From an uncultured Actinomycetota bacterium (GTDB lineage: Bacteria > Actinomycetota > Actinomycetes > Mycobacteriales > Mycobacteriaceae), in NCBI GenBank assembly GCA_963741555.1, contig CAVUIH010000009.1, positions 10,200-74,199 on the forward strand: a stretch of DNA of 64,000 bases. Direction: 5' to 3'. This document shows positions 8,471 to 34,520 of the stretch, piece after piece. Position 1 is the stretch's first letter; each line of letters starts with the position of its first letter. The translations under genes were made by a program, and so were the position numbers. Under the pieces are notes generated by a model that saw nothing but the letters and a program-made list of their open reading frames with translations, did not search any database and was not told the origin of the DNA.

Positions 8471-10001
8471 TCAGTGGCCGAAGCCGAAGCCGAAGCCGCC
8501 ATGGCCAAAGCCGCCGCCAAAGTGGCGGAGCCGCCGCCCCCGCTGCCGTGGCCGCCGCCACCGCCTGGGCCGGGGAAGCCGCCGCCGGGGTTGCCGCCGC
8601 CGCCACCTGGACCCCACGGCCCACTGGGCGGCCCGAACCGGGGCCCACCGAAGATTCCTGGTATCGGGATCGGCACCGGAATAGGTGCGACGACAGGCGG
8701 CGGTGCAACAGGAGGCGGAGCCACCGGCTCCGGAGCAACCGGCGCCGGCGCCGCCGGTGCGGGTACGGGAGCCGGGGCGGCCTGCACGGGTGCGGGAGCC
8801 GGTGCCGCCGGAGCCGGGGCCGGGGCCTCGGGAGCAGGTTCGGGCGCCGGCGCCTCAGGAGCAGGCGCGGGCGCGGCGGTGCGGGTGCCGGTGCAGACGC
8901 CGGGGCCGGGGCTACGGGTCGCGGCAGGCGCCGGCTTGGGTGCCACCGCCTGTTGACCCGGTTGCGGCCGGACAGCCGGCGTTCGGACGCATGCTGACCG
9001 CCAGAGCGACCAGCAACGCCGCGGCACCCACAACGAAGATCGCCGCAACCGCGCTGGCCACCAGGACCAGCGGCCTGCGGCCACCGTCAGACGGGGCCTC
9101 GGCGACGCCGGTGTAGGTACCGGTCTCGAAATCGGCTTGCTCGCCGGCGAACGCGGTGTAGGCGTCGACGTCGTCGTCGGCCACCGCACTGTAGGCGAGG
9201 GCTTGTTCGCCCGAAGCGTTGTCGACGGCGACGTCGAAGTAGCCCGGTGCGACCGCGTAGGGGTTGATGAAGCCGGTGCCCGGATCCTGCGCGTAAGCCA
9301 GGGCCTCGGTTGACGAAGAGAACAGCGGCGCATTGGCCGAAGCCAGCGCCGCGCCACGGGCCAGCGCGGTCTCCGGCTCCTCGGGCGCGCTGACGATCAT
9401 CCCGGTGACGGCCTCGAGCTGCGATTTCAGCGGGGTGATGTCGACGCCCGATCCGACCAGGAACAGGCCGTCGGGTCGCGTGCCCAACGAGTCGGCGCCG
9501 GACGCCAGCGCCGCCAGTTCGGCAAGCGAATTACCGCCGGGCGTCAGCGGCTGGCGTTGCACCTCGGTGATCGAACCGTCGGAGGTGTTGACCACCGCCA
9601 GCGTTGCGGTCTCGGGCTCGACGAACAGCAGACCGGTCTGCGCGTAGCCGATCGAGCTGCCGACGAGCTGGGCCAGTGCCGCCGCGGCCAGGAAACGACG
9701 ACACCAGCATCACGTTCTCGACCTTGCGTTCCGCTAACGCGTCACGCAGTGCCGCGGCATCGACCGGATCTGTCCAGGTGACGCCCGTCGACCGCAGTTG
9801 GTAGCCGCTCTCGGCGGCACCCTCCTGGGTGCCAAGGATCGCCGATACGACTTGGTCGGCCGCATTGATGGTGGGGGCGTCGGCAGCCAGGTTGACGTCG
9901 AAGCCTTCTTCGTCGACGGTCGCGCCGTCGGCGTTTTCACCCTCCACGAGAACCATGCGGACCGCAGTGGGCGCCATCGAAACGCCAAGTACGGTGTCCA
10001 C
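8471..10001 (-). CDS. Paralog A: degenerate actin/Hsp70-fold domain + TM + Pro-rich stalk + Gly/Phe/His tail (DUF7159-like, from recall); several frameshifts
   Basis: RBS GGAGGAG + GTG; rebuilt from ORFs 9531..10001, 8912..9595, 8443..9357 and a final frame reading HFGGGFGHGGFGFGFGH to TGA at 8471-8473. Confidence 0.78.
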
Positions 10002-10165
10002 TTCTCCTCCAAGCTGTTCGCCCGCTCACCGGGTCAAAAGGATTGCCGGGGTTCCTCAGGTTCTGGCAGAAGCGGCGCGGATCATTGTCCGGTTATTTGC
10101 CACTTCGACTTTACCGACGGCGGAACCGGGCGGCTATGGGTTGACGACGCAATTCCCGGCGGTCA

Positions 10166-11606
10166 CTAACGGCCGTGGCCGCCACCGTGACCCCAGCCAC
10201 CGCCGCCGTGACCCCAGCCGCCGCCGCCGTGGCCCCAGGGGCCACCGTGGTCGCCGCGGTCGCCGCCCCACGGGCCCGGGCGGGCGGGCCGAACAGCGGG
10301 GGTAAGCCGGGTATCGGAATCGGAATCGGTGCGGGCACGGGCGCTGGGCCGGGAACGAAGGCGGGGGCCGGCGCCGGGCGCGGAACGAAGACGGTGCAGG
10401 TGCCGGCGCTGGGGCCGGATGGAATACGGGGGCTGGCGCGGGCGCCGCGACCGGCGCGGGCGGGGCCGCCACCTGCGCCTTGGGCAACGGGGCCGGGGCC
10501 GGGGCCGGCAGCGGTCGAGCCGGAGCGACCACGTTGTGGCTGAGACTGGGCCGCGAGCTTGCTGACGGTCGGATACTGAACGCCAGCGAGATCACCAATG
10601 CCATGACGCCGGTCACAAAAATGATCAACACGCTCATCGCCGCCAAAAACGGTGTGCGACTGACGTGTTCGTGCTCCATTGCACCGAAATCCGGGTACAT
10701 GCCGGTGGTGAAGTCGTTGTCTTCGCCGGCATACGCGTCGGCGCCCATCTGGGTGTAGACCGCGGCAGAGTCGTCGGCGACGGCGCTGTAGGCCAGCCCG
10801 TCTTCGCGCGGCTCGGCAGCGACAGCCTCGGCGACCGCGAGGTATCCCGGCTCGTGGACGTGCGGGCTGACCGCACCGGTGCCCGGGTCGAGCGCGTAGG
10901 CCTGCGCGGCCGTCGACGACGCGAACAGTGGTGCATTCGCCGACGCGAGTGCCGCGCCTCGGGCCAGCGCCATCTCGGGCTGGTCGGGCATGCTCAGCGG
11001 AAGCGACGTCGCGCCTTCCAGCGCCGGCTTGATCAGCGGAATGTCGACCCCGGAGCCGATGACCAGGACGCCGTCAGGCTCGTCGTCGAGCCGCTCGGCG
11101 GCGGAGACCAGATCAAGCAGTTTCGACACTGCCTGGTCGTCGTCGTCGGGCAATATCTCGCGGTGAACGTCGGTGATCGACCCGTCGTTGGTATCGACCA
11201 CTGCCAGCGTCGCGGTTTCGGGCTCGACATACAGCAGCGCGGCGCGGGCGTATCCCGTCGCGGCGCCCATCGACTGGGCCAATGCCGCCGCGGCAAGAAA
11301 CGTCGAGACAAGCATCACGTTCTCGACCTTGCGCGCCGCCAATGCGTCGCGCAGTTCGGCAGCATCGCGCGGATTACTCCACGTCACACCGGTTGACAAC
11401 AGCTCGTAACCGGCCTCGTTGGCGCCTTCACGAGTGCCCAGAATCGCCGCAACCACCTGATCCGGCGCCCTCAAGGTTGCCGGGTCTTCGCCGTCGGTGA
11501 CGACGAAACTGTCCTCATCGACGGTCACACCGTCGGCGTTTTCTCCCTCAACCAACACGATGCGGACCGTCGTGGGTGCCATCGATACACCAAGTACCGT
11601 GTCCAC
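10166..11606 (-). CDS. Paralog B: same architecture with Gly/Trp/His tail; frameshifts near 10390 and 10280
   Basis: GGAGG + GTG (VDTVLGVSMAPTTVRIVLVEGENADG); last frame reads GPWGGDRGDHGGPWGHGGGGWGHGGGGWGHGGGHGR to TAG at 10166-10168. Confidence 0.8.
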
Positions 11607-11736
11607 GAATCCTCCAACATGTTTGCCAGCTATCCGCGGTCCGTGTCCGATAAGCGCACCGTTGAGGTGGCCAAACACAAATTCAAACGCCGCACTTGTG
11701 CGCGGCGTTGACCGCGGATTAGCTGTGCTCGGTGAA

Positions 11737-11763
11737 GTACCCGCCAGGGACATTGGTCAATCC
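11737..11763 (-). promoter_or_regulatory. Putative SigF promoter upstream of paralog B
   Basis: Minus strand GGATT-N16-GGGTAC matches mycobacterial SigF consensus GGWWT-N16/17-GGGTAY, about 130 bp upstream of the start. Confidence 0.55.
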
Positions 11764-11820
11764 CCCCGGCTGACCCTTCGCAGCACGACTTTACCGTGCC
11801 TCTCGCGGGGCCGCCGGAAA

Positions 11821-13738
11821 CTAGTGATGCCCGCCCCCTCCGCTGTGGCCACCGCCACCAAACCCGCCGCTGTGGCCGCCACCGCCAAAGCCACCGCCGC
11901 CGAAGCCGCCACCACCGAAGCCGCCACCGCCGAAGCCGTGGCCACCCCCGAATCCGCCGCCGGGGCTGCCCCCGAAACCGCCCAAGCCGGGGATACCGCC
12001 AAAGCCGCCGCCGGGCATACCGCCGAAGCCGGGGTTGCCGCCGAAACCGCCATCGTGCGGCGGTCCACCGAAGCCGGGGATACCGCCGAAACCGCCCAAG
12101 CCGGGGTTACCCCCGAAACCGCCGCCTGGCGGGCTGAACGGCCCGTGCATCGGCGGACCATCGAACCCCGGACCACGGACGCCGTCCGGCGGCCCGCCCG
12201 GCGGCTCGAAGCCCGGCAGCCCTGGCAACGGCATGTGTGCCGGCGGCTCGGGCGCGACTGCCGCTCGGAACCGGCTCCTGCGGCTGCGGCGGAATGTGGA
12301 CAGGGATCGGCAGGTGCACCGGCGGCGGCTGGTGCGGAACGCTCACCGGAGGTTGCTGCGGCGACGGGAGCCATATCGGCGGCTGCTGCGGCGCGAGATG
12401 CACCGGCGCCGGGCTCGGCACATGCAACGGAGCGATGTGAATTGGAGGGCTGGCCGGAATCGGAAGCGGAACGACAACCGGTGCAGGGGCGACGATCGGC
12501 ACGGGCGGCGCAGCGGCGAGAACCGGAGCGGGCGCCGGAGCCGGAATCGGTGCGCGCACCGGTGGAGCCACCACCGCGGGTGCTGGAATCGGATGAGCTT
12601 GCGGCACAGGGATACTCACCGGCGCCGGGGCAGGTGCAGGCGCAGGTGCGGCCGGGATGATCAGGCTTTGCAACGGGCGGGGCAGCAAGGCAACACTTGG
12701 CCGAACACCAAGCGCCAGTGCGACTTCCAACGACAGCGCGGCGGCAACCACGACAACCGCGAGCATGCTTCCGAGGAGCACGAGCGGCCGGCGCTCGGAG
12801 CCGCCGTCGAAGAGCTCGTCGCGCGGGGCGCCCGCCGCGGCGGTGGGGGCTTGAGCTTCGTCGTCCGACAGGGCGTCCATCGCAGCCGTGTGGGCGTCGG
12901 CTTCCTCATCGGGAAGGGCGCTGTAGGCCAGGTCGTCTTCACCGAGCTCAGTGCCGAACGGAACATCTGGCACCGCAAGGTATCCCGGGGAGACGGCGTA
13001 GGGATCGATTGCGCCGGTGCCGGGATCTTGCGCATACGCCAACGCCGCGGTCGACGAGGCGAACAGCGGCGCGTTGGCCGATGCCAGCGCCGCGCCCCAC
13101 GCCAACGCGGTCTCCGGCTCTTCGGCTGCGGTGACCGGCAGCAGCGTCACGGTCTCCAGTTGCGGCTTGATCGTGGCGACGTCCACCCCGGTGCCGACGA
13201 TGAACACGCTCTGCGGACGCGTTTCCAGCGCTTCCAGACCGGCCACCATCCCGGCTAGCGTCGCGACAGTGTCGATGCCAGACAGCACCTCTTTGTGGAC
13301 ATCGGTGATGGAGCCGTCGGCGGAGTCGACGATGGCCAGCGTCGCGGTGTCGGGTTCGAGGAAGAGCAATGCGGTGTGCGCGTCGCCGACGGTGTTACCG
13401 ACCATCTGCGTCAGTGCGGCCGCGGCCATGAACGCCGACACCAGCATGACGTTTTCGACCTTGCGGGTGGCCAGAGCCGAATGCAGTGCGGCGGCGTCCA
13501 CCGGATCGGTCCAGGTGACGCCGGTCGATCCGAGCGCGTGACCGGCTTCGGCGGCGCCCTCCCGGGTGCCCAGAATCGCCGAGATCACCTGATCGGCAGC
13601 GCTGAGCGTCGCCGCGTCGTCGTCGGTGGCGATGTCGAAGGTGGTGTCCTCGACGGTGACGCCGTCGGCGTTCTCACCTTCGACCAGCAACATCCGGACA
13701 GCTGTGGGTGCCATCGACACCCCGAGCACGATATCCAC
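11821..13738 (-). CDS. Paralog C: same architecture with long GGFGG tail ending HH; frameshift near 12250
   Basis: GGAGG + GTG (VDIVLGVSMAPTAVRMLLVEGENADG); ORF 12107..13750 joins ORF 11821..12234. Confidence 0.82.
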
Positions 13739-13853
13739 CGCGGCCTCCAAGAACCTTCGCAGCGCGCCACGGTTTTAGGCGGAGGGAACACCGCGTCCGG
13801 CGCTACATGAGGTAAATATTCACTGTGGAAGCTGTGCGGGGAGACAGCCGAAC

Positions 13854-14426
13854 TTAAGTGGACCTTATGAAATTTTGATACGACCGCGACGGCGTCGGTC
13901 CGCGCTGGCCCTGATACTTCGAGCCAACCGAGGCGCTGCCGTAGGGATGTTCGGCCGGGCTGGTCAGGCGCAGGATGCAAAGCTGACCGATCTTCATACC
14001 CGGCCACAGCGTGATGGGCAGGTTGGCGACGTTGGACAGCTCCAGGGTGATGTGACCGCTGAAGCCGGGATCGATGAAGCCGGCGGTCGAATGTGTCAGC
14101 AGCCCAAGGCGTCCCAGCGACGACTTGCCCTCCAGCCGGCCCGCCAGGTCTTCGGGCAGCGTGCACAGCTCCAGCGTCGAGCCGAGCACGAACTCCCCGG
14201 GATGCAGCACGAACGGTTCGCCCTCGGCCGGTTCGACCAGGCTGGTCAACTCGTCTTGTTGCTGCGCGGGGTCGATGTGCGTGTAGCGGGTGTTGTTGAA
14301 CACCCGGAACAAGCTGTCGAGGCGGACGTCCACGCTGGACGGCTGAACCAGGGCGTCGTCGAACGGGTCGATTCCCAACCGGCCGGCGGCAATCTCGGCT
14401 CTGAGGTCGCGATCGGAGAGCAGCAC
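13854..14426 (-). CDS. dcd: dCTP deaminase
   Basis: [50 protein letters not shown]. Confidence 0.97.
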
Positions 14427-14497
14427 GCGACGAGCGTAGCCGCCTGCGATGCCGGTGAACGGCGTGACGCCGGATGCTAGCCTCTCCAAGCAACATT

Positions 14498-14571
14498 GCC
14501 GATGTAGTTCAATGGCAGAACATCAGCTTCCCAAGCTGAATACGCGGGTTCGATTCCCGTCATCGGCTCCA
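14498..14571 (+). tRNA. glyU: tRNA-Gly (anticodon CCC) with encoded CCA
   Basis: Acceptor GCCGATG/CATCGGC, anticodon arm TCAGC-TTCCCAA-GCTGA, T-loop GGTTCGATTC, 3' TCCA. Confidence 0.97.
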
Positions 14572-14803
14572 CTTCTGACTGCGCCGATGCTGTTCGAAGC
14601 AGCGCTCAGTGGCAACTCGATTTGAATCGCGCCAGCTGGTTTCAGCGCGTCACTCGGTCCTCGACACGCTACCGACGCCGAGCGTCGACAAGGTGCGGAG
14701 CTACGAGTTGGCGCGCCGGTTCGGCAGCTGAACGCCTTCTTAATCCAGTCTTGACTTCTAGGATTCTCTGATCAACGGCGGACCGTGCTGATGGGAGGTT
14801 GCA

Positions 14804-15343
14804 CTGAAGCGCAGGAAGCTGTCGGCCATCGGACAGCGCTTCGAGCGCTCGCGAGTCGGCGAGTTCGCGATCAGCGTCGTTGTCGTGCTGGCGCTGACAA
14901 TCGGCGTGGTGTGGAGCATGCCGGACGCCGAATTCAAACGACGGCTCGTACCGGTGCTGCAACCGGTCGCTGTGGCGACGGGGTTGGAGCAGGACTGGCG
15001 GATGTACGCCCCAGAGCCGCTTGGGCGACTGGAATGGGTCGAAGTGCGTGTCACCATGGCCGATGGCGTCCAGCGGGTGTGGACGCCTCCGCGCGGCGAC
15101 CGGGTGGGGGGAGCGTTCGCCTGGTATCACTGGCAAAAGTTGAAGGAAAATCTCGTCGACGTGCCGGCGATCCGAGTTGATATGGTGCACTGGGCAATTC
15201 GTCAGGTCACCGACCGTTCTGAGCGTGCCGCGCGGGTGCAAATGGTCCTGCGCACCGAGTTACTCCCGGCCCCGGGAACCGACAGCCCCCGCACGGTCAC
15301 CGAGGAAATCCTGTACGACGAGATCTTGGCCGGCGGCCGATGA
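14804..15343 (+). CDS. SdpA/DUF5819-like membrane-anchored partner of the HTTM protein
   Basis: N-terminal hydrophobic helix, LEQDWRMYAPEP (QxWxx[FY]AP motif), ATGA overlap with HTTM gene; start either CTG 14804 or GTG 14885. Confidence 0.65.
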   Translation: MKRRKLSAIGQRFERSRVGEFAISVVVVLALTIGVVWSMPDAEFKRRLVPVLQPVAVATGLEQDWRMYAPEPLGRLEWVEVRVTMADGVQRVWTPPRGDRVGGAFAWYHWQKLKENLVDVPAIRVDMVHWAIRQVTDRSERAARVQMVLRTELLPAPGTDSPRTVTEEILYDEILAGGR

Positions 15344-16416
15344 GCGAGCCATCAAGCCGCCAGCGGCGTTGGCCGGCTACCGCGGTGGCGAGCTGGCGGA
15401 CGTTTTGGTTTCGCCCGCAGCCGGCCTACACCCTCGGTCTGGTCAGGATGGCGTTCGGAGCGGTGGCGATCGGCTGGACACTCTCTCTGCTCCCTGATCT
15501 ATATGCGTTGTTCGGCCGGCACGGAGTCGAGCCGCAGCAGCCTGAGAGTGCCTATCAGTGGAGTGTTTTCGCGATCTGGACCAGTGACCATGTGCTGCTC
15601 ATCGGATGGATCCTGCTGCTGCTGTCGTCGGTAGCGCTGACGATCGGCTGGCGCAGCCGACTGGCCGCTTTGGCGGTATTTGTGCTGATCTTGTCGTTCC
15701 AGCACCGCGACGTGTGGGTTTTCAATTCCGGCGATCTCGCTGTCCGCATTGAAGCCTTGTTCCTTGCGATCTCGCCGTGCGGGGTGGCGCTTTCGCTCGA
15801 CCAGGCACGCAGCACCGGCAAGTTCTGGTCGGCGCAGCAGCGCCCGCAATGGCCGGTGCGGTTGATGCAAGTGCAGCTGTCGTTGATCTATCTCGCGTCG
15901 GCGCAGGCCAAGCTGAATGGCAAAGCGTGGCCGCAGGGCACCGCCGTGTCCTACGCTCTGCGGCTGCCGGACATGCTGCTGCTGCCTACGCCGCACTGGT
16001 TTGCGACCAGCGCGCTCCTGATGAACGCCGTCACCTGGGCCGCGCTCGCCATCGAGCTTTCAATTGGGATTCTGGTGTGGAACAAGCGATTACGGCCGTG
16101 GGTGCTGGCGGCGGGCGTCGTGATGCACACCGCGATCATGATTACCATCGCGGTTGGATTTTTCACCCTGGCCATGTTCGTCCTCTATCTCGCGTTCGTC
16201 CCACCCGACGTAGTCGAGCGTCTTCCGCGTAGCGCAAAAGATATGGCGAGGAAGCTGGCGGGGCTTGCTCGACCTAGGCCGAAATCCAGGAATCAGGAGG
16301 AGATTTCGGACGCGGCAGCAGACGACGGAGTTGTCGCCGAAAGTCCAAAGTCCCGCTGGGACTATCGCCGAAGACTAGGCAAAGGCGACACCGCGGACCG
16401 GTCGGCTGAGCTATAG
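15340..16416 (+). CDS. HTTM-domain membrane protein (SdpB / vitamin K-dependent carboxylase-like)
   Basis: LGLVRMAFG, FNSGD, ALSLD, RLMQVQLSLIYLASAQAKLNGxxWxxG, MHTAIMITIAVGFF; multiple TM helices. Confidence 0.85.
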   Translation: MSEPSSRQRRWPATAVASWRTFWFRPQPAYTLGLVRMAFGAVAIGWTLSLLPDLYALFGRHGVEPQQPESAYQWSVFAIWTSDHVLLIGWILLLLSSVALTIGWRSRLAALAVFVLILSFQHRDVWVFNSGDLAVRIEALFLAISPCGVALSLDQARSTGKFWSAQQRPQWPVRLMQVQLSLIYLASAQAKLNGKAWPQGTAVSYALRLPDMLLLPTPHWFATSALLMNAVTWAALAIELSIGILVWNKRLRPWVLAAGVVMHTAIMITIAVGFFTLAMFVLYLAFVPPDVVERLPRSAKDMARKLAGLARPRPKSRNQEEISDAAADDGVVAESPKSRWDYRRRLGKGDTADRSAEL

Positions 16417-17997
16417 GTGACCGCCACCGGTGGTCAATGCATGGCCGGTGGTCAACCCATGGCCGGTCCCGCCGCCCGTCGTGCTACCGCCACCGTCGTC
16501 CCACCGCCCGTCGTGGCCGTCCCCGTCGTTCCGCCGGTCGTGGCGGTGCCCGTCGTTCCGCCGGTCGTCGTTCCGCCGGTCGTGGCGTGCCCGTCGTGCG
16601 CCGGTCGTCGTTCCCCGGTCGTTCGCGTACCTGTCGTTCCGCCGGTCGTCGTTCCCCGGTCGTGCGTGCCCGTCGTGCCGCCGGTCGTCGTTCCACCGGT
16701 CGTACCGCCCGTCGTCGTTCCACCGGTCGTACCACCGGTCGTCGTCCACCGGTCGTCGTTCCACCGGTCGTACCGAGGTGGTCCCACCGGTCGTCCCGGT
16801 CGTTCCGCCCGTCGTCGGTGGTTCCACCCGTCGTCGTCCCGGTGGTTCCACCCGTCGTCGTCCCGGTGGTTCCACCCGTCGTCGTCCCGGTGGTTCCACC
16901 CGTGGTGCCGCCGGTCGTGGTACCTCCCGTAGTCATACCGCCGGTCGTGCTCGGGTGTGGATGCGGAAACGGGATCGGATAGGAACGGGGATCGGAACTG
17001 GGATCACCCCGGGCGCCGGTGGCGGCCCGGCGTCGGGCGGGGGTGCCGGCGGTGGCGCTTGATCTGCTCCACCGCCACCTCCGACCGCAGGCCCCGGACC
17101 ACCTTGGGGGACAACGGCATCCGGGGCTGGCAACTGGTGGCGCCTGGACGACCGGCGCAGGTCGCGTATTCGGCGCCGGCAAGGCAGGGACGAAGTTTCC
17201 CGGAACCGACTTCTGCTGCGCCGGCGGCGGCGGTTGTGGATGCGTCGCGGCGGTCGGGCGGACGCCGATCGTCACCGCGACGGCTAACGCCGCAATTCCA
17301 GCGACCAGCATTCCACCGGCCGCGCTGCCCACCAGCAGGGCCCGGCCGGCTGGCACTGCGGCAGCATCGAATTCTCATCATCATCATCGCCGCCGTATTC
17401 CATCGGGAGCAGTTCGGAGTCGTCGTCCTCCATCGAGTACGCCAACTGCGACTCCATAGCCGCGGCCCTCGTCGCGACCTCGTCACCCGTGAACGCCTCG
17501 GTCATCGGCGCTGCAGCTGACAACATGGTTTCCTCGCCAGTCGTCGAGGAGAACGAGCCGGTCGGCGGCACCGGTGCCAACGTGGTCGCGTCACCGGCGG
17601 GGTAGGACAGCCGGCCCGTCGCCGCGTCTAAGGCTGCGCCGCGGGCGACCGCGAAGTCAGGGTCATCCGGCACCGCCAGCGGCAGAGAAGACATCGCCGT
17701 TGCTGCATCAGAGTCGGACAACACCGCGACGTTCTGAACGCCGGAGTCGTTCAACACCTGCCTCAGCTGATCGGCCAGGTCTTGATCCGACCAGCACAGC
17801 CGGGTCGCGACCAGCCGGTGATATTGGTCTGCCAGAGACCGGCTTGTACCGACGACCGTCTCGGTCAGTCTCGCGATCGGATCCTCCGCGAGGTCGACGA
17901 CCGACTCATCGATGACCCCATGGGCACCGTTTCCCGTTTCGATGAGAGCCAAGCGGGCAACCGGACCGTCGACTGCGACCCCTAGAGCTAGGTCCAC
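16411..17997 (-). CDS. Paralog D: shortened actin-fold domain + TM + Pro stalk + long Thr/Gly tail; multiple frameshifts
   Basis: GAGGAGG + GTG (VDLALGVAVDGPVARLALIE), PDFAVARGAAL, QLAYSMEDDD, TM ending VTIGVRP, IPVPIPVPI, TTGG repeats, end GGGHL. Confidence 0.72.
16440..16950 (-). repeat. Coding tandem repeat of TTGG/TTTGG/TTG units, including about 3.7 perfect 24 bp copies at 16816-16903
   Basis: Plus-strand unit CGGTGGTTCCACCCGTCGTCGTCC starting at 16816, 16840, 16864 and partially 16888. Confidence 0.92.
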
Positions 17998-18312
17998 CGC
18001 GGACCTCCTCTCCACTGCTGCCGCATCGGCATGGTCGCCAGTCAATCACGATCTACCAGGGCAAGTCCGAGGCAAGAATGCCGAGCTTCGCTATACCTCG
18101 GCGATTATCAGTCATTGGCGAGAGAATGCCAGCGCAATTGTCAGTTTTGCTTCGCCTCATGTGTCTGTCGAATTAGCCGGTACAACCTCGTGCTGGATCG
18201 GCGCACAGCGGATACCGTCACAGACGAGCCGCGCAATTTGCCGAGCAGGGTGCTAACTCGGCGCATAACTTAACCGGTGCCGAACCGCAGTATCACATTC
18301 CAGGGAGATCTC

Positions 18313-20234
18313 GTGAGCCAAAGGCACGATGACCCGGCCACCCAGAACTTCGCCACCCAACGTCTCTCAGCCGGACAGGGCACACCGCCGCCCCCAAGAC
18401 ACCCCGCTCCGAACGAGCCATCGGCGAAGCGATGGAATATCGGTCGCGACGTCCTCGCCGGCGTGCTGTTGGTCATCGCGCCCCTCTTCCCGTGGAACCT
18501 GTACTTCGGCATCGGTATCCCGCACAGCAGCGGTGCGTTGTTTGCGCTGCTGGCTGTGGTGACCGTGCTCTCGCTGGCAGCTGTCGCGGTGACCTATGTG
18601 ATCGGCTCACGCCCGGGCAATAGCGTGGCCGGTCGACTCCGAGTGGCGCTCACCGCGCCATACGTGTTGCTGGTGGCGGGCTTCGTCGGTTTCGACGTCG
18701 TGCAGACCATCCGCTACGGCGGCAGCGGCAATGTGCCGGGTGGCGTGGGTCCAGGCGCATGGCTCGGGATCAGCGGCGCACTGTTGACTGCGCAGCCTTC
18801 GATCACCGGCGCGGCCACCGACGACGGCAGCCTTCGAAAGTGGCCGATGTCGGCTCGGATCGTGGGCTACACGTCCATAGCCCTTGCGGCGCTGGCTGTT
18901 TTGTTCAACCTGTTCTGGCGGACAAAAGCCGCCTTCCCAGGCTCGGCAGACTCGTCTGGCTTCGGCAGACAGAATATGGCGATCATTGCGACGGCAGTGG
19001 TGTACGGCGTTGTGGCGCTGGTCCCCGTCGTCGTGGCAGCCAGGTGGATTCTGCAGAGCAGCAGCAGGTCCTCTCGGCTGGCGACCATAGCTCTCGGAGC
19101 GTCCACGCTGATCGCCGGCGTTGTCGTCTGGGTCCTTCCCGCCGGCCGCGAGATCGACGGGTTCCATAGCATCGCACAGAACACGTCGACGGCTGGGGTG
19201 GGATTCGAGGGCTATCTGGCGTGGGTTGCGGCCGCAGCCATATTCGCGCCGCTGACCCTGCTCAGCGTGGCAACCAACCAGCAGATCGACCGAGGTGTCT
19301 GGCGGGTAGCCGCACGAAAAGGCTTACTACTGATCGCTGTTTGGTGCCTGGCTTCCGTGCTGATGAGAGCAACCGACGTCATCGTTGCCGCCGTTTTGCA
19401 TCTGTCGCGCTCGCCGTACGACAGCGCGGCAATAGCCACATTCGATGTTCTGACCGCGGCGCTTGCGCTTTGGCTTCGCGGGAACCTCCTCAGCCGCTTT
19501 TTCCCGGTCGCCGTCATCTCATCACTGTGCGGAGTTCTTCTGGTGCTCAGTGTTTCTCGCATCGTGCTGGGCATCGCCTTATCTCCCCGAATTGCAGGTA
19601 CGCCCCCCGGGGGCGGCAACCCGGTCTACGGAAACAATCTCGCCCAGCAGATCACCAGCACCTTCGATGCCGTGCTCAGCGGGCTAGCCCTGTGCATCCT
19701 CGTCGTGGCCATCATCACCGCACGCTTTGTACAACGTCGCCCACACGCTAAAGGCAAGGGGGGACAACCAGGTCCGGCCTGGTGGCTTCGGATGCCGAGA
19801 CGACGCGACTGCGCATCCCCGGCGCAGCGGAATCAACCGCCCCACGACGGCAACAGCCAACGCCCCCGCCGCGGATCCATCGTCCAACGGAACAGCCCAC
19901 GCGCCGGATAGACGTCCGCTCCGGGGGGCGTGAGGACGCGACACAACAGCTATCGACCCATGCGCCCCGGATCTTCCGGTCCGACGACTCGGAGGCAACG
20001 CCCCATCGCCCCGCCGCCTCAGCGTCCCGGCCAGCAATCATCGACAAGCACGCCGAAAATCCATCGGGCTCAACCAAATCCGGCGTGAGCGTCCTCGCGG
20101 TGGACCAACGCATGAAGGTGGCCCTCAGGGGTGAGCGCTGCGGCGTCGTTGTGGCCAAAGCAACGGGGTCCGAAGCCCGCCGCCTTAAGACAATTGCGGA
20201 CACCGAAAACCCCCCAATCGACTTCCCAAGCTGA
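18313..20234 (+). CDS. Polytopic membrane protein of unknown function with disordered termini; probable frameshift near 19775
   Basis: AGGGAG + GTG; about a dozen hydrophobic segments in 18277..19911; tail continues plausibly in 19782..20234. Confidence 0.7.
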
Positions 20235-23309: not shown

Positions 23310-23479
23310 CAAGACCTCCGTTGTTTGGATACTGTCGACCGTAGCGATTCCGGCAGCGTCACAAAGCCGAATATCAAGATCGGGCTAACACGCGAGTCTT
23401 CCGCAGCGACAACCGATGTGCGTAAGCTCGCCCGCAAGCTTTGGTTAAGTACACACGACGATTCTTAGGTCGATTATTT

Positions 23480-25141
23480 ATGCAGGACAGGTCCTCGGTA
23501 CGGGTTGAAACCGACCACGAATCACTATGGACCTACGTCGCCTGTCCCACTCTCGTAGTTGATCAGACCGGAGTCGTTCAAGCGCTGAGCGCGTCGGCCC
23601 AGTCGTTGATCCCCGAAGCGGCGCCGGGAATTCGCCTCGATGTCGCCGTTGGGTGGCTGTCGCCGGTACACATTCGGCTCGTAGAACATTCGGCAACGCA
23701 TGACAACCGGGAGTCGTTCAACGCGTCCGGGCCGGTGGGTGGGCGGAGGTTCGACGCTCACCACGCCATGCTGCCCGGCGGCGAAGTCGCCTGGTCGCTG
23801 GTCGAAGACACCGGCCAGGTGTTACGCGACGCTCAGCAAGCGCTGACCCGGGAGCACGAACGCGCAGCATTCCTGCTCGAAGCGTCGTCTGTGTTGATGG
23901 CATCGCTGAACATCGACCGCTGCAGGGAAGCGACAGTGCAACTCGCGGCCCGGGATCTCGCCGACGCGGCGGTCGTCGTCGCTCCGGCGGGACGTGGCCG
24001 GCGGATGCCGGTCTTCTACTGCGACGCATCGGGTGTTGTCGAGCAGCGCAGTGTCGACGCCGACCCGGCATCGGTGTCGGGTCTGAGCGAGGCGCTGCGG
24101 GGATTCCCACCGGTTCCCTCGCGCTGGATCGACGCCGCGACGCTGCCGGCGTGGCTGATTCCGCAGGGTTTCCAGGGCCCGGTCGGCTCGGTCATGATCA
24201 CTCCCCTGCCTGGCCACGGCGTATCAGCGGGTGCGCTGGTGTTGTTGCGGCACGCTGAGGAAGGTGTATTCAGCGAGGGCGAAGAGGTGCTGGCGCATTT
24301 GTTCGCAGCGCGGGCCGGTGCGGCGTTGTCGGCCGCACGGCTCTACGCCGAGCAGGCGGCGATCACCCGCACGCTGATGCGTGACCTGCTGCCTCCCCAA
24401 CTACACCCGGTGCACGGGATCGAGTACGCAGGCGGCTACCGGGCCTCCGAAGACTATGAAGTGGTCGGCGGCGACTTCTACGACGTCCACCCCGCGGCCA
24501 CTCCCGATGGCGAGACACTGATTGTCCTCGGGGATGTCTGCGGTAAGGGCCTCGAAGCCGCGATGCTGACCGGCAAAATCCGGAACACCCTGCAGGCGTT
24601 GACGCCGATGGCCGCCGACCACCAGGCCGTCCTCGAGTTGCTCAACGGCGCGCTGCTGTCGACCGAGCACGCCCGCTTCACCACTTTGGTGCTGGCATCG
24701 GCCGCCAACCGGGATGGCGGGGTGGCCTTGCGGTTGACCAGCGCAGGTCACGTGCCGCCGCTGATTGTGCGCGACGGTGGACGCGTCGAGCAGGCCCAGA
24801 CGGCGGGCACGCTGATCGGCGCGTTGCCGAGCATCGAGACCCAATCGTTCGAGACGTCCCTGGCGCCCGGTGAGACGTGCGTGCTGTACACCGACGGCGT
24901 CACCGAAGCACGCGGCGGCCCGCTGGGCAGTTACATGTTCGGCGAGGAGCGGCTGGCAGCCGTGCTGGCCGAGTGTGCCGGAATGCCCGCCACCGCAGTG
25001 GTCGAACGCGTCATGATGCTCGCCACGCAGTGGATCGGCCAGCAGGTGCACGACGACATCGCCGTCGTCGCGATCACCGCCCCCCGCCGCACTCACCTGA
25101 GCGCTGTCGACGGCCACACCCGGGGAAGGTTCACGGCTTGA
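23480..25141 (+). CDS. GAF + PP2C/SpoIIE (RsbU-like) phosphatase
   Basis: VGGDFYDV, GDVCGKG, SAGHVPP, LYTDGVTEA, HDDIAVVAI. Confidence 0.92.
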   Translation: MQDRSSVRVETDHESLWTYVACPTLVVDQTGVVQALSASAQSLIPEAAPGIRLDVAVGWLSPVHIRLVEHSATHDNRESFNASGPVGGRRFDAHHAMLPGGEVAWSLVEDTGQVLRDAQQALTREHERAAFLLEASSVLMASLNIDRCREATVQLAARDLADAAVVVAPAGRGRRMPVFYCDASGVVEQRSVDADPASVSGLSEALRGFPPVPSRWIDAATLPAWLIPQGFQGPVGSVMITPLPGHGVSAGALVLLRHAEEGVFSEGEEVLAHLFAARAGAALSAARLYAEQAAITRTLMRDLLPPQLHPVHGIEYAGGYRASEDYEVVGGDFYDVHPAATPDGETLIVLGDVCGKGLEAAMLTGKIRNTLQALTPMAADHQAVLELLNGALLSTEHARFTTLVLASAANRDGGVALRLTSAGHVPPLIVRDGGRVEQAQTAGTLIGALPSIETQSFETSLAPGETCVLYTDGVTEARGGPLGSYMFGEERLAAVLAECAGMPATAVVERVMMLATQWIGQQVHDDIAVVAITAPRRTHLSAVDGHTRGRFTA

Positions 25142-25863: not shown

Positions 25864-26664
25864 ATGCGAGCGGTCTCTCGGTCTGTTCTCGCGGCGGTAG
25901 GCGTAGCCGCGTCCTTCGTCGTCGATCCAACCGGGGTGAGCAGTGCCGCGACGAGCCCGTCGCTGACGTCCGAGATCGCCTCGATTCAACCGAGATCCGA
26001 TCAAGTGGTGGGTGTGGCACACCCCGTGGTCGTCAACTTCCGTACGCCCATCGCCAACCGGCATGCCGCCGAGCAGGCGTTGAGAATCAAAGCCACACCG
26101 CCGATGACCGGTAAGTTCGAATGGCTCGATAACACCGTCGTGCAATGGGTTCCGGACCGGTACTGGCCGGCACACAGCACCATTGCGCTGTCGGTGGGTG
26201 GCATGTCGACAGACCTCAAGACAGGTCCGGCCGTCCTCGGCGTCGCGGACATCTCCGATCACACGTTCACCGTGAGCGTCGACGGAGTCCACGCGGGACC
26301 GCCGCGGCCCGCCCCGCACCACCAAGCCCACTTGGGCGAGGACGGGGTGATGCCGGCGTCGATGGGCCGACCGGAGTTTCCGACACCTGTCGGTGTCTAC
26401 ACGGTGATGTCCAAAGACCGCTCACTGATTATGGATTCAAGCACCGTCGGTGTTCCGATCACCGATCCGGCGGGTTACCGGGTCCCGGTCGATTACGCCA
26501 CCCGCATCACCAGCCGGGGCCTGTTCGTGCATTCGGCGCCGTGGGCGGTCAATGCGCTGGGCCACGAGAACGTCAGCCATGGCTGCATCAGCCTGAGCCC
26601 GGCAGACGCCGAGTGGTACTTCAACAACGTCAACATCGGCGACCCGGTGGTCGTCAAGGAATAG
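25864..26664 (+). CDS. L,D-transpeptidase (LdtA-like; Ig + YkuD domains)
   Basis: Signal peptide, VVGVAHPVVV, FVHSAPW...SHGCISL. Confidence 0.93.
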   Translation: MRAVSRSVLAAVGVAASFVVDPTGVSSAATSPSLTSEIASIQPRSDQVVGVAHPVVVNFRTPIANRHAAEQALRIKATPPMTGKFEWLDNTVVQWVPDRYWPAHSTIALSVGGMSTDLKTGPAVLGVADISDHTFTVSVDGVHAGPPRPAPHHQAHLGEDGVMPASMGRPEFPTPVGVYTVMSKDRSLIMDSSTVGVPITDPAGYRVPVDYATRITSRGLFVHSAPWAVNALGHENVSHGCISLSPADAEWYFNNVNIGDPVVVKE

Positions 26665-26746: not shown

Positions 26747-26761
26747 CGTGCGAAGCGGCTC

Positions 26762-28983: not shown

Positions 28984-28994
28984 CGCACCAGCGT

Positions 28995-29059
28995 AACTGA
29001 CAGTTGACTGCTACTTAGCCGAGTTCTACGCTCGGACAAGTGGCAGCTAACTGGCACTT
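28995..29059. promoter_or_regulatory. Two 22 bp palindromic operator-like sites between tetR and cyp
   Basis: AACTGACAGTTGACTGCTACTT (28995-29016) and AAGTGGCAGCTAACTGGCACTT (29038-29059). Confidence 0.7.
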
Positions 29060-29076
29060 AAGCGTAAAGGTGGCTG

Positions 29077-30264: not shown

Positions 30265-31229
30265 CAAACGATATGCGGTTCGACGATCAGGTCGCGGTGA
30301 TCACCGGCGCCGGTAATGGTTTGGGCAAGCAGTATGCGCTGTTGCTCGCGTCGCGCGGGGCACGCGTGCTGGTCAACGACATCGGCGGCTCGGTCACCGG
30401 GGCGGGTTCCAGCGCCGACGCGGCTACCGCCGCCGCCGACGAGATTCGCGGGCGCGGCGGCGAGGCCATCCCCGACACCAACAGCGTGACCAGTCCCGAA
30501 GGCGGACAGGCGATTATCGACGCCGCTGTGCACGCCTGGGGACGCGTCGACATCGTGATCAACAACGCAGGCATCGTCCGCGACGCGCCGTTCGAAGAGA
30601 TCACCGCCGACCGACTCGACCCGTTGGTGGACGTCCATCTCAAAGGTGCGTTCCACGTCGCGCGACCCGCCTGGAAGGTCATGCGCGAGCAGCGCTACGG
30701 GCGAATCCTCAACACCTGCTCGGCGGCGGGACTGCTTGGCGCCGAACGGATGAGCAATTACGGCGCGGCCAAGACCGGGTTGATCGGCTTGACCCGGGTT
30801 CTGGCCGCCGAGGGCGCCGATGCCAACATCAAGGTCAACGCGATCGCGCCGATCGCTTACACCCGGATGCTGGCGCATTCGGTCGAGAGTGCCGGCCAGC
30901 AGGACGACCCCTCAGCACAGGCCGTGCTGGATGACCTTGTGGCGCAATATCTTCAGAAGCTGGACCCTGCGCTTGTCGCTCCGGTCGCGGCGTTCCTGAC
31001 GCACCGGGACTGTCCGGTGTCCGGCGAGATCTACACCGTCGGCGCCGGGCACGTCGCCCGGTTCTTCATCGGCCGCACGAAAGGCTTCTACAGCCCCGCG
31101 CTATCCGTCGAACAAGTCCGTGACCATCTCGACGAGATCCGCGACGAGGCGGATTACACAGTTCCGGGCGGGCCGGCCGACGAGATGGCCGCACTGTTCG
31201 CGACGATCATGGCCGACCAGACCGGCTGA
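30261..31229 (+). CDS. SDR oxidoreductase (MFE-2 / hydroxyacyl-CoA dehydrogenase-like)
   Basis: TGAGNGLG, NNAGIVRD, YGAAK; GTGA overlap with P450 stop. Confidence 0.9.
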   Translation: MTNDMRFDDQVAVITGAGNGLGKQYALLLASRGARVLVNDIGGSVTGAGSSADAATAAADEIRGRGGEAIPDTNSVTSPEGGQAIIDAAVHAWGRVDIVINNAGIVRDAPFEEITADRLDPLVDVHLKGAFHVARPAWKVMREQRYGRILNTCSAAGLLGAERMSNYGAAKTGLIGLTRVLAAEGADANIKVNAIAPIAYTRMLAHSVESAGQQDDPSAQAVLDDLVAQYLQKLDPALVAPVAAFLTHRDCPVSGEIYTVGAGHVARFFIGRTKGFYSPALSVEQVRDHLDEIRDEADYTVPGGPADEMAALFATIMADQTG

Positions 31230-31232
31230 CGG

Positions 31233-31949
31233 CTAGAGGTGGCCGGCGGCGTAACCCGCGGCTTGCGCCGTCATGCCATTTGCCGGATACGAGGCGTGGG
31301 CGAAGCTCGGCACGGCGCCGGCATCGCCGTTGCAGATCGTGTCGCCGTCGGCGCACAGGTCAAGGGTCTTGGGCGCATACAACGGACCGATGGTGATCGT
31401 CGGCGCGCCGTAGTTCTGCAGCCACGCCGACGACGGTTTCCCGAACAGCGTCACTGCGGCGACGTGGTTGGCGATCTCCGGCGGCATCGGCTTGGGCAGG
31501 AACGGAACGTATTCAGCAGGCACCCCCGCCGGGATCGACGCCGAGGTGACGAAGCCGGCTACAGCCGCACCCTGGGAAAAACCGCCGAGCACGATCCTGG
31601 TTTTGGGGCAGTTCGCGGCGGTGGCCTCGATATGGCCGGTGGCGTCTTTGATCCCGTCGACGACGCTCTGGGCGAACTCGATGCGATCCGAGAAGTTGCT
31701 GCTGGCTTCGTAGTTGACCGGGTACACGTCCAGCGACTTGGGGCCGACAGCGGTGCGCAGTTGGTCGACGAACGGTTCCCCGATACCGCCGACGCCGGGT
31801 GGCTCACCAGTGCCGCGGGCGAACACCGCCTCGACGTCCGGACATGGTTGCGCAGACGAGACCGGCGTGGGCGCGGCTAACAATCCGCCGAGGATCACCA
31901 GCGCTGCAAAGAGGACGCGACCGATCTGGCGTGCACACATGATCAACAT
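31233..31949 (-). CDS. Cutinase family protein
   Basis: Signal peptide, CPDVEAVFARGTGE, GFSQG, CADGDTIC, catalytic His. Confidence 0.93.
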   Translation of the reverse strand: MLIMCARQIGRVLFAALVILGGLLAAPTPVSSAQPCPDVEAVFARGTGEPPGVGGIGEPFVDQLRTAVGPKSLDVYPVNYEASSNFSDRIEFAQSVVDGIKDATGHIEATAANCPKTRIVLGGFSQGAAVAGFVTSASIPAGVPAEYVPFLPKPMPPEIANHVAAVTLFGKPSSAWLQNYGAPTITIGPLYAPKTLDLCADGDTICNGDAGAVPSFAHASYPANGMTAQAAGYAAGHL

Positions 31950-32036
31950 TGTGACGTCGTACCCGCGAACATGTATCGCTATTCCGAGGTGACAAAGGTC
32001 GCGGCGGCGCAGCGGCGCCGAGACCAGGCCAGACAA

Positions 32037-32429
32037 TTAGGATGCGTCGCCGTCGTCGTCTGGGCCGTCCAGCACGCTGACGGCGATGCCGTACGGCAAG
32101 AATCGGACCTTGCGGCTCGGGTCGGTGTTGTTCCGGTTGGCGCGCAACGCATCGAGTTCGGTGGCGTACACCTCCTCGACGCGGGCCGCGCCGTCGGCGC
32201 TCATCGCATAGATCGCCCATACCCCGTCGCCGGCCTCACCGGTGGTCTCCGGCCTGGTCCGGGGGCGCCGCGTCAAGTCCTCAAAGACCGACGACCACCC
32301 TGACCGGTCACCGGGCAGCGTGAAGAATCTGCTGACCCCTTCCAGCGCGTCGCGCAAGCCCTCGCCGGCGTCGCGGATCACTCGATCCAAGTCCTCAGGA
32401 TCGAATCCGAACCGTCCGTTGTCGTCCAT
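32037..32429 (-). CDS. Conserved protein, Rv0313 orthologue
   Basis: FGFDPEDLDRVIR, GEAGDGVWAIY, VRFLPYGIAVSVLD; AGGAGG RBS. Confidence 0.8.
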   Translation of the reverse strand: MDDNGRFGFDPEDLDRVIRDAGEGLRDALEGVSRFFTLPGDRSGWSSVFEDLTRRPRTRPETTGEAGDGVWAIYAMSADGAARVEEVYATELDALRANRNNTDPSRKVRFLPYGIAVSVLDGPDDDGDAS

Positions 32430-32493
32430 TGCGCCTCCTGGCAGCTCACACCGATACATCCAGTGTGCGCATATCGACGGGCTCGCGCCACGA

Positions 32494-34520
32494 CTAGTAG
32501 CCGTACCCCGGATTCATGTAGGGGTTCTGCGGCATGTACGGGCTCTGCTGCTGGTAGGGATTCTGCTGCTGATACGGGTTCTGCTGCTGGTAGGGGTTCT
32601 GCGGCTGCTGACTCGCCCCGCCCTGTCCCTCGGGGACCTGCACAGGTATCGGTACCGGCACGAAGGGCAGATTCAGATACGTCGTCGTCATCGCCACCGT
32701 CGGCGACGTGCTCGGCGGCGGGGGCGGCGGAGGTGACGTGCTCGGGGTAGTGCTCGTCGCCGGCGGCGTCGTGGTCGTCGGCTGCTGCGTGGTGGTCGTG
32801 ACCGGCGCCCTGGTGGTCGGCGGTGGTTCATACGTGGTCACGGCGGCGGCGGTGGCGGCGGCGGCGCTTCGCTGGTCGGCGGCGGCGCCTCGGTGACGGG
32901 TGGGGGCGGCGCTTCGGTGGGTGACGGCGCCGCGCTGGGCGGAGGCGGCAGCGGGCTCGGCGATGGCAGCCGCGAGCTCACTGGTGGCGGCGGCACCGCC
33001 GTGGTGCTGCTCGGCAAGGTGGGTGCCCGGCTACCCGGGCTGCTCGTCAACGTGAACGCCACACCGCCGATGGCGACCATGGAGACCAGTGCGGCAAGCC
33101 CCAAAAACAGCTGCGGCAACCGATTTCCGCGCTGCTGCAGATCGAGCGATTCGACCCTCGGCAATGCCATGAGCTGTGACGGCGTGGCGCGGTTGTCGTC
33201 GTCGTCATAAGGTTCGCCGGTGTAGAACACCGGCTCGTCGCCGGAATCGTCAGCTTGCGACCAGGCCAACTCCTGCGGCGCCTCCGACGGAGCGCCGTTG
33301 AAGAACGCATCCGCCGGGGCGGTGAACGTGCCGGTCGATGCGTCGAAGGTGCCGGTGGGGGCGCCGAGCGCATCCGTCGGCGCGGCGAAAGTCCCGCTCG
33401 ACGTGGCGAAGCTGCCCGTCGATGCACCGACCAGCGTGGCCATCGTCGGCACTTCGACCGCGTCCTGCTCCTTCTCCTCGATCGGATGCCGGGCCGCCAG
33501 CATCACCGCGCCGACCGCCATCGCGAATCCGGGCTGCACGGCCGTGATCACCGACGCTTTGGTGTGCGACGAAAGACGCTGAGCGACAACCGGAATCTTG
33601 GCACCGCCACCGGCCATCGCCACTGCGGCGATGTCTTTGCAACGAATTCTGTTGGTACGCAACACGTCATCGAACTCCGCGAGCAAACCGCCGAGTCGGG
33701 CCTCGATCAGGGTGTCGAGCTCGGCCCGGCTCACCTCGACGCGTGAGCGCTGGCCGGGTAGTTCAACCACGAGCTCGGTGGACGTTTCTTTGGACAGCCG
33801 CTCCTTGGCCAGACGGCATTCCTCACGCAGACCGGCGAATTGCGCGACTACACCGGTGCTCGCCGGATCGGCGCCGTTGCCGTGACCGACGCTGTCCAGC
33901 ACGTGAATCATGAGCGCCTGGTCGACGAGGTCGCCGGAGAATTCCGGATACCGCACGGTGTCGACGATCGGGGTGAAGCCCGACGCGGCGTCGGCCAGGG
34001 TGATGCTCGTCCCGCTGCCACCGAAATCCAGCAGCGCGACAACACCATTGGCCGGCAGGTGGGAATCGGCGTTCAAGGCGGTCAGCGCGGCAGCGGAGTC
34101 CGTGACCAGTCGCGGAGAGATGCCATCGTGCACGAAGCCGGCATGGGTGCTCAACGCGTCTTGCAGGACCCGCAACGCGCCCGCGCCCCAATAACCCGGA
34201 ACGGCCATGGTGATGTTCGAGTTCGACGCGTCACCGCCACTCGCGGTGATCAACGCATCCAGCGCCTCGACCAGCAGGAGCGCCGGGTCGTGGTTCGAAC
34301 CGTCGGCAGGCTTGAGCTCGTTCGACCTCCCGACCCGCTCGACGAAGCCTGCCATCAACGTGCCGGTGTCAGCTCCGTCGTTGTCGTCAACGGGCACACC
34401 AAGTTCCGGCGCGCGGTCGGGAAAGAGCGTCAGCACAGCGCGACGCGAGACGGGAGGATTCCCGCTACGGACCGCGACGAGATTAGTGGTCCCGATTGAT
34501 AACCCCAACGGGTCATACAT
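32494..34520 (-). CDS. Hsp70-like membrane protein with Pro/Thr stalk (Rv0312 orthologue); frameshift near 32845
   Basis: LGLSIGTTNLVA, LLDFGGSGT, CRLAKERLS, AGGGAKIP, ELAWSQ, TM helix; tail in 32494..32841. Confidence 0.85.
32518..32610 (-). repeat. 18 bp coding repeat, about 5 copies (QxQNPY)
   Basis: QQPQNPY QQQNPY QQQNPY QQQSPY MPQNPY. Confidence 0.9.

Follow-up and report, generated by a model that had tools for sequence, protein, structure and literature searches.

The window described here, the whole 64,000-nucleotide stretch of contig CAVUIH010000009.1 (C9 of the genome) that was analysed, carries five minus-strand genes built on one plan: an N-terminal domain with the actin/Hsp70 (ASKHA) fold, an acidic linker with the motif LA[YW]S, one transmembrane (TM) helix, a Pro-rich stalk and a low-complexity tip. 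The source is an uncultured member of the Mycobacteriaceae, with a genome of 4.45 Mb in 16 contigs and a completeness score of 78.5%. Judged by the proteins studied, Mycobacterium cookii is the closest named relative (copy 3: 94% identity), and its locus is 87% identical to the window, in which the GC content is 0.63-0.70.

An earlier note, made from the sequence alone, had described the five genes as one family of membrane-anchored pseudo-ATPases with interchangeable outer tips. All five are present where it placed them, and none has a single open frame from start to stop. Feature coordinates were obtained by regular expressions and hydropathy, reading across the frame breaks. Once the breaks are bridged in this way the shared plan is confirmed: every feature that had been listed was found, including one Arg-preceded TM helix in each of the five copies and a His within the final three residues of the four Gly- or Thr/Gly-rich tails. 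The "five-member family" stands as a common architecture and not as a single family, a point that the note had itself partly recognised. The genes belong to two uncharacterised Pfam-level families, four being of the DUF7159 type and one Rv0312-like. Both families are already catalogued (DUF7159 in Pfam, Rv0312 as "Hsp70 family") and the window genes are ordinary members of them. The features are as follows.

7028-8414, minus strand: udgA (UDP-glucose 6-dehydrogenase), immediately downstream of copy 1
8471-10001, minus strand: copy 1, DUF7159; ASKHA core, directly upstream of udgA, Gly/Phe/His tail ending in His
8662-8685, minus strand: copy 1, alternating P-[IV] motif
9008-9070, minus strand: copy 1, TM helix, Arg-preceded and followed by a Pro/Ala stalk
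9188-9199, minus strand: copy 1, LAYS
9290-9301, minus strand: copy 1, LAYA
10166-11606, minus strand: copy 2, DUF7159; Gly/Trp/His tail (HGGGGW units) in another frame
10312-10329, minus strand: copy 2, alternating P-[IV] motif
10584-10646, minus strand: copy 2, TM helix, Arg-preceded
10785-10796, minus strand: copy 2, LAYS
11821-13738, minus strand: copy 3, DUF7159; long Pro-rich stalk
11821-12234, minus strand: copy 3, GGFGG-repeat tail ending in HH, reached past the frame change near 12262
12455-12472, minus strand: copy 3, loose alternating motif
12704-12766, minus strand: copy 3, TM helix, Arg-preceded
12920-12931, minus strand: copy 3, LAYS
13031-13042, minus strand: copy 3, LAYA
14498-14571: tRNA-Gly(CCC), beside copy 4
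16411-17997, minus strand: copy 4, DUF7159-related; lobe I (about 95 amino acids) and the last ASKHA-core helix only
16981-17004, minus strand: copy 4, alternating P-[IV] motif
17261-17323, minus strand: copy 4, TM helix, Arg-preceded
17434-17445, minus strand: copy 4, LAYS
32494-34520, minus strand: copy 5, Rv0312-like; Hsp70-type nucleotide-binding domain (NBD), linker, TM helix, Pro/Ser/Thr stalk, Gln/Asn/Pro/Tyr tail
32644-32661, minus strand: copy 5, alternating P-[IV] motif
33048-33110, minus strand: copy 5, TM helix, Arg-preceded
33258-33269, minus strand: copy 5, LAWS, after a Thr/Gly/Phe-rich cytoplasmic linker
about 33480-34520, minus strand: copy 5, complete Hsp70-type NBD

Copies 1-3 pass the gathering threshold of Pfam PF23717 (27 bits, a whole-protein score), also in a whole-genome scan. 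Copy 1 matches DUF7159 on both of its N-terminal pieces (37.2 bits for the first), and copies 2 and 3 score 61.2 and 64.7 bits; an NCBIfam scan found no model for the DUF7159 proteins. The udgA gene, probably co-transcribed with copy 1, has one frame change near 7764-7807 that splits it: a tblastn search with M. cookii UdgA matched it as two pieces that lie in different frames. In M. cookii the orthologue is a single gene of 439 amino acids. A 10-mer, G-G-T-A-A-A-G-T-C-G, was seen by eye in the regions upstream of both copy 1 (10002-10170) and copy 2 (11607-11830). It may represent either a promoter or operator element that was duplicated or a remnant of tandem duplication.

Copy 4 has no Pfam match and does not reach the PF23717 threshold, and its first 95 residues align with the DUF7159 alignment in hhalign (probability 97.8, E 1.1e-12, 95 columns). 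We regard it as a truncated DUF7159 relative, because only lobe I matches and orthologues elsewhere have the second lobe. Those in other Mycobacterium genomes mostly carry the full two-lobe domain, the closest sharing the Thr/Gly tail, which here ends G-G-G-H-L; lobe II is absent from the window copy and from one other orthologue. The N-domain proposed for all five genes is thus truncated in copy 4. A translationally coupled gene pair (14885-16416, plus strand) converges on copy 4 and also lies beside the tRNA gene. Its 152-amino-acid member has a weak match to DUF5819 (E 5e-4, below the cut-off) and its 358-amino-acid member is an HTTM-domain membrane protein (E 1.6e-17). At the corresponding position M. 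cookii has an island with integrase, LCAT and caspase/TPR genes.

Copy 5 matches Pfam HSP70 (PF00012) with 74.1 bits against a cut-off of 20.6, over model positions 135-375. The match ends before the Hsp70 substrate-binding domain and lid (model positions of about 390-599), which copy 5 lacks, and scores for NCBIfam DnaK and HscA are far below their cut-offs. Copy 5 therefore has an Hsp70-type NBD, yet it is no canonical Hsp70 chaperone. A profile of the Rv0312-like family matches Hsp70 NBD sequences of the PDB with E 3e-24. M. tuberculosis Rv0312 and M. smegmatis MSMEG_0692 have the same architecture as copy 5 (Hsp70 NBD, one TM helix, Pro/Thr-rich C-terminus). By the H37Rv gene order, copy 5 occupies the position of Rv0312, between ESX-3 and dcd/udgA; synteny and annotation suggest that it is orthologous to Rv0312 itself. 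The motif P-[FL]-[VL]-P-[VI]-P-I-P precedes a C-terminal Gln/Pro/Tyr tail in 8/10 of the closest copy-5 homologues, and one homologue, L015, is intact at 668 amino acids with the same motif and tail type; other Rv0312-like paralogues have plain Thr/Pro tails in place of the Gln/Pro/Tyr tail after P-V-P-I-P. Every Mycobacterium genome sampled has more than one copy of the Rv0312-like family (2-6 matches per genome), and the source genome holds two more members, on C15 and C4. Paralogues of the window genes were located at C15:964300-965873 (minus strand), C15:622772-624400 (plus) and C4:324815-325126 (minus). One is a simpler DUF7159 protein that lacks LAYS, the alternating motif and the Gly tip, and two are Rv0312-like, that on C15 having LAWS, a TM helix and a Thr-rich tail.

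Frame breaks in the five genes

Copy 1 contains at least three net frame changes (near 9695, within 8977-8884 and near 8520), and copy 4 also has several. Copies 2 and 3 have one each, within 10280-10394 and near 12262 respectively, and the single change of copy 5 falls inside a poly-Pro run near 32840. These breaks are probably assembly errors, because the M. cookii locus is intact with its tips in frame. The complete M. cookii genome encodes dcd, three DUF7159 proteins and udgA, all open, and two further assemblies agree. Its orthologues of copies 3, 2 and 1 have 635 (P0003, 94% identical to copy 3 over the N-domain), 483 and 513 amino acids, and its Gly-rich tips end in His. Homologues of copies 4 and 5 are open at 560-690 amino acids. 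The tips are thus in frame, and translated, in relatives that include M. cookii.

Alternatively, the copies here could be real pseudogenes of a lineage that is losing these envelope proteins, so that the tips are not made in it. We consider this unlikely, although two observations count for it and against assembly error: the break in copy 3 does not lie at a homopolymer, and the breaks cluster, all five genes being broken and, among six conserved flanking genes compared with M. cookii, udgA alone. By the same token rpoB and dnaK are open, the genome is small at the completeness given above (M. cookii has 5.3 Mb), and lobe II has been lost from copy 4. The clustering would be expected for Pro/Gly codon runs, which are expected hot spots of long-read indel errors, though this is no proof. 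Several breaks (near 9695, 8977 and 10280) are 1-nucleotide length differences from M. cookii in short homopolymer runs, and the out-of-frame tails remain open and closely match the M. cookii tails. In P0002, a 95% identical sequence from another assembly, the copy 3 gene is broken elsewhere and has the correct junction at the break of the window. Read evidence consisted of assembled contigs. Soil-metagenome contigs of run X1 cover 16874-17315, where copy 4 needs two frame changes, with 0 substitutions and 2 gaps within that stretch; a sister run of the same study, X5, contained a Nextera adapter remnant. No contig with zero substitutions was found over the breaks in copies 1-3 or 5. Assembly error remains the most likely explanation for the breaks.

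Fold and nucleotide-binding motifs of the N-terminal domains

The N-domains had been proposed to share the actin/Hsp70 fold, and AlphaFold models, Foldseek and VIA-align all agree on this. An alignment of 46 DUF7159 N-domains (A1), with copy 3 as its first sequence and the one modelled, and another of 25 Rv0312-like N-domains (A2), used for the copy 5 model, formed the basis of the analysis. The DUF7159 model has pLDDT values above 90 over residues 1-225, where it shows a doubled beta-beta-beta-alpha-beta-alpha-beta-alpha pattern, and residues 228-297 are disordered. All 50 of the Foldseek matches listed are ASKHA proteins (best E 3.4e-9). In VIA-align the model superposes over about 200-216 residues (Z 15.9-13.5) on ROK kinases and repressors, CoaX, BcrAD/BadFG activases, MamK and FtsA. 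By its model, the N-domain of DUF7159 consists of a minimal ASKHA core of two lobes, with neither the IB nor the IIB subdomain, and is therefore not specifically Hsp70-like. The best matches to it, ROK, CoaX and BcrAD/BadFG proteins (Z 14-16, about 200-216 of 225 residues), are of the same compact two-lobe type without large inserts; however, they are soluble and have intact phosphate loops, whereas DUF7159 proteins are membrane-anchored. Searched against PDB sequences, the DUF7159 profile gave only sub-threshold ASKHA matches (E 0.4-2.7). A homodimer prediction for the DUF7159 core, made without controls, scored 0.00 and is given no weight in either direction.

The term Hsp70-like does fit copy 5. 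Its model (pLDDT 86) superposes on the NBDs of DnaK, Hsc70, BiP and Ssz1 over about 330 residues, with Z 33.6-32.7 and 18% identity. Copy 5 shares with the Hsp70 chaperones (DnaK, HscA, Ssz1) the four-subdomain NBD and the phosphate-2 and adenosine motifs. It differs from them in the disordered linker, TM helix and predicted exported tail that follow the NBD.

The position of the phosphate-1 Asp was assigned by motif alignment and not from superposed coordinates. By this assignment the Asp has been lost in both families, as the earlier note had it: in DUF7159, position 4 is Val in 41/46 sequences, adjoining an invariant Gly, and in the Rv0312-like family an invariant Ser replaces the Asp in 25/25, within G-L-S-I-G-T-T-N. 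The two families differ in what else they keep. In DUF7159 the phosphate-2 hairpin reads E-P-D-T-A-T instead of D-x-G-G-G-T, with an acidic residue (Glu or Asp) in 40/46 and a near-invariant Thr; an adenosine-like motif, G-S-G-V-D, is present, and the best-conserved part of the domain is its last helix, P-E-E-P-E-x-A-L-A-R-G-A-A-L. Canonical ATP hydrolysis by DUF7159 proteins is unlikely, because the phosphate-1 Asp and the phosphate-2 glycines are lost. In the Rv0312-like family the phosphate-2 motif D-F-G-G-S-G-T (D165, G167, G170) and the adenosine motif G-G-G-A-x-I-P (G304, G305, I309, P310) are invariant, and an Asp aligns with Glu175 of Hsc70. As judged from these motifs, nucleotide binding by this family is plausible. 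The designation "pseudo-ATPase" is unjustified for copy 5, because copy 5 retains the phosphate-2 and adenosine motifs.

One could go further and regard the N-domains as working ATP-driven engines, that is, tethered Hsp70- or actin-like ATPases that chaperone, polymerise or export, possibly acting on their own tails. The motifs kept by copy 5, its fold match to nucleotide-bound Hsp70 NBDs, the acidic residue, near-invariant Thr and G-S-G motif kept by DUF7159, and the presence of MamK and FtsA among the structural matches of the latter would all fit. This explanation nevertheless appears doubtful to us. In both families another residue stands in place of the phosphate-1 Asp; in DUF7159, Pro and Asp occupy positions of the phosphate-binding glycines, and the subdomains that Hsp70 and actin-like filaments use are absent; and copy 5 has no substrate-binding domain, with an atypical Hsp70, Ssz1, among its top matches. 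Ssz1 binds ATP and is not known to hydrolyse it.

A shared membrane module with variable tips

Both families have in common a module that consists of the LA[YW]S-acidic motif, an Arg-flanked TM helix, a Pro-rich stalk of 80-130 residues, the P-[IV] motif and a variable low-complexity tip. LA[YW]S followed by acidic residues is present in all five copies. As had been proposed, the motif connects the two families. LAYS is invariant in 18/18 DUF7159 linkers, together with a near-invariant stretch, S-S-T...L-A-Y-A-Q-D-P-G-T-G, and LAWS is invariant in 21/21 Rv0312-like linkers and in 24/24 full-length homologues, about 45-60 residues before the TM helix. In both families the strongest conservation thus falls outside the fold.

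We defined a composite motif as LA[YW]S with at least four acidic residues in the next 25 residues and a TM segment within 95 residues. Genome-wide it occurred only in copies 1, 2, 3 and 5 and in the Rv0312-like paralogue on C15; copy 4 has LA[YW]S and falls outside these matches with its TM segment in another frame. The strict alternating P-[IV] motif was found eight times in the six-frame translation of the 4.45 Mb genome, 4/8 in these genes. Such genome-wide counts rule out that the shared motifs are artefacts of Pro/Gly composition. LA[YW]S was also considered as an ESX YxxxD/E signal, and this was dropped, as the spacing fits copy 4 only and copy 5 has Trp. Profile-profile comparison of the two families gave weak matches in the adenosine-motif region (probability 52.6, E 1.4e-4) and in the region of RRP plus TM helix (probability 78, E 1.8e-5), and the single copy 5 sequence matched the DUF7159 profile with a probability of 2%. 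The literature that we searched contained neither the shared LA[YW]S motif, the shared P-I/V motif, a genus-wide pairing of DUF7159 with udgA, nor the distinction between degenerate DUF7159 and motif-retaining Rv0312-like domains.

The N-terminus is predicted to be cytoplasmic and the tail exported, because there is no signal peptide and a folded N-domain of 225-350 residues precedes the only TM helix. From the TM helix to the P-[IV] motif the distance is about 77-129 residues, and in an extended polyproline-like state this span would measure some 25-40 nm, which is of the order of the thickness of the mycobacterial envelope.

The tails of the five copies are of different types, namely Gly/Phe/His in copy 1, Gly/Trp/His in copy 2, GGFGG in copy 3, Thr/Gly in copy 4 and Gln/Asn/Pro/Tyr in copy 5. 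Across 150 cluster representatives we distinguished Gly/aromatic/His, Gly/Ser, Ser, Thr, Pro/Gln and other classes; tails of the Gly-rich class nearly always end G-G-H followed by a basic or His residue. Distant DUF7159 representatives (P0198, P0209, P0211, P0221, P0238, P0263 and others) have a second conserved type of end, W-P-type, e.g. L-W-P-L-W-P. On a quick tree of 82 N-domains the tail class changed 34 times; of 200 label shuffles, the first ten gave 43-51 changes. Many of the metagenomic sequences are truncated or frameshifted, so the test is a crude one; it suggests that the tips turn over often with only modest phylogenetic signal. Frequent change of tail class is thus observed; that the tips are interchangeable, as the earlier note had put it, is what this may imply. 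The tails of the window and those of M. cookii are set apart by indels of whole repeats (24, 27 and 30 nucleotides).

Another explanation would make the tips the functional part and the cytoplasmic domain a mere anchor, the tips being low-complexity modules (His/Gly/Trp, GGFGG, Thr/Gly, Gln/Tyr) that are displayed at the surface and bind metal or act as adhesins. The G-G-H-type ends, the whole-repeat indels and the HGGGGW-type units kept between the window and M. cookii would agree with this. It is improbable, however, given that the most conserved positions lie on the predicted cytoplasmic side (LA[YW]S, the last ASKHA helix and the S-S-T...D-P-G-T-G stretch), that the tail class is so changeable, and that some members have tails of plain Pro/Thr or lack all of the motifs.

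Distribution, gene links and proposed role

PF23717 matched in 8/8 Mycobacterium genomes (2-7 matches each), in 0/143 genomes from 55 other genera of the order and in 0/14 controls; DUF7159 was thus found in Mycobacterium only among the genomes sampled. A phmmer search for DUF7159 yielded 755 clusters at 50% identity. One genome has a larger tandem expansion than the window, with five DUF7159 matches in about 17 kb (G051 C29:12129-29122). In 11/13 informative relatives, as here and in M. cookii, udgA has a DUF7159 gene directly upstream on its own strand, and Rv0312-like genes are often next to or near DUF7159 genes (G007 C54, G008 C3, G003 C14).

The M. abscessus pair MAB_4296c-MAB_4295c (DUF7159-udgA) is a SigD-dependent operon (3.2- and 3.6-fold) and among the strongest chromatin immunoprecipitation peaks (PMC13537577). 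MAB_4296c belongs to PF23717, has the same gene order as copy 1, directly upstream of udgA, and both are predicted membrane proteins. The window differs in having three tandem DUF7159 copies and a truncated fourth. The interactome of FhaA includes MSMEG_0692, which is given as the Rv0312 orthologue, alongside MviN, CwsA and further proteins of wall synthesis (PMC11898655), and a BCG transcriptome study lists Rv0312 with the MtrA regulon (PMC11126594). Nothing on the function of udgA/Rv0322 in mycobacteria was found in the literature searched. The links to udgA, SigD, MtrA and FhaA place the proteins in cell-wall biogenesis or envelope stress.

Linkers of the copy 4 type (L045-L051) contain repeated cytoplasmic units, G-D-[AE]-T-[AT]-[ML]-A-P-A, where copy 5 has T-G-[ST]-F repeats. 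Because of the FhaA interactome match, these repeats, which contain Thr, are candidate sites for Ser/Thr kinases or for FHA binding.

Elsewhere in the neighbourhood, on the plus strand, are genes for a DUF7937 protein (18277-19911, E 8e-114), a SpoIIE/PP2C-type phosphatase (23441-25141) and an L,D-transpeptidase (25864-26664, YkuD with an Ig domain).

Membrane-held actin-fold domains that act as docking platforms and not as enzymes are known from GspL/EpsL of type II secretion, PilM-PilN of the type IV pilus, and FtsA. GspL and PilN are anchored through one TM helix, FtsA through an amphipathic helix. PilM (5eoy) and FtsA are among the many ASKHA structural matches of DUF7159. The likeness is one of architecture only: there was no Pfam or NCBIfam match to the GspL or PilM-PilN families, and none of these was among the Pfam families of the 10 neighbouring open reading frames scanned. 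Unlike GspL and PilM-PilN, which have a folded periplasmic domain, the proteins described here would present a disordered Pro-rich stalk and a low-complexity tip on the outside. TonB offers an analogy for the Pro-rich spacer, without membership by sequence. Mycobacteria are not known to have MreB or FtsA.

Structure and architecture being well supported, we infer the role, that of a scaffold or sensor. We think it fairly probable that the five genes, members of two related families, code for single-pass membrane proteins that serve as envelope-spanning scaffolds or tethers in cell-wall biogenesis. The ASKHA domain together with LA[YW]S would form a cytoplasmic docking platform, with docking that would be independent of nucleotide in DUF7159 and perhaps gated by ATP in the Rv0312-like protein. 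The stalk would act as a spacer across the periplasm and wall, and the tip as a fast-evolving end that contacts the outer wall layers. Such scaffolds would be under envelope-stress and growth regulons (SigD, and MtrA as annotated in the BCG study) and connected to FhaA.

Besides the two points on the frame breaks given above, several observations argue against this proposal. M. tuberculosis presumably has dcd and udgA adjacent with no DUF7159 gene between them, in which case the link to udgA is not universal. The SigD consensus, GTAACR-N15-17-CGAT, has 0 matches in the window. The connection between the families consists of a four-residue motif and an architecture, with weak profile scores and a TM match of low specificity. 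Finally, copy 5, with most of its nucleotide-binding motifs kept, may be active or ATP-gated and not a pseudo-enzyme.

A more specific version is tentative: LA[YW]S, the TM helix, the stalk and a P-I/V hinge might together be a portable envelope-spanning tether, used by two actin-fold families to recruit a common cytoplasmic partner, e.g. FhaA, Ser/Thr-kinase signalling or UdgA. If so, the tether would link wall-precursor metabolism in the cytoplasm with the outer layers of the wall. It would be a counterpart, specific to Mycobacterium, of trans-envelope connectors of the TonB or GspL type, and its tips would diversify through slippage of their repeats.

How the cytoplasm is coupled to the thick, multilayered envelope of mycobacteria is only partly understood. 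Both families are plausible and testable candidates for scaffolds in this envelope, since the DUF7159-udgA pair is conserved and in M. abscessus SigD-dependent, and FhaA has the Rv0312 orthologue in its interactome. For pull-downs and point mutants, the invariant LA[YW]S motif offers a precise handle.

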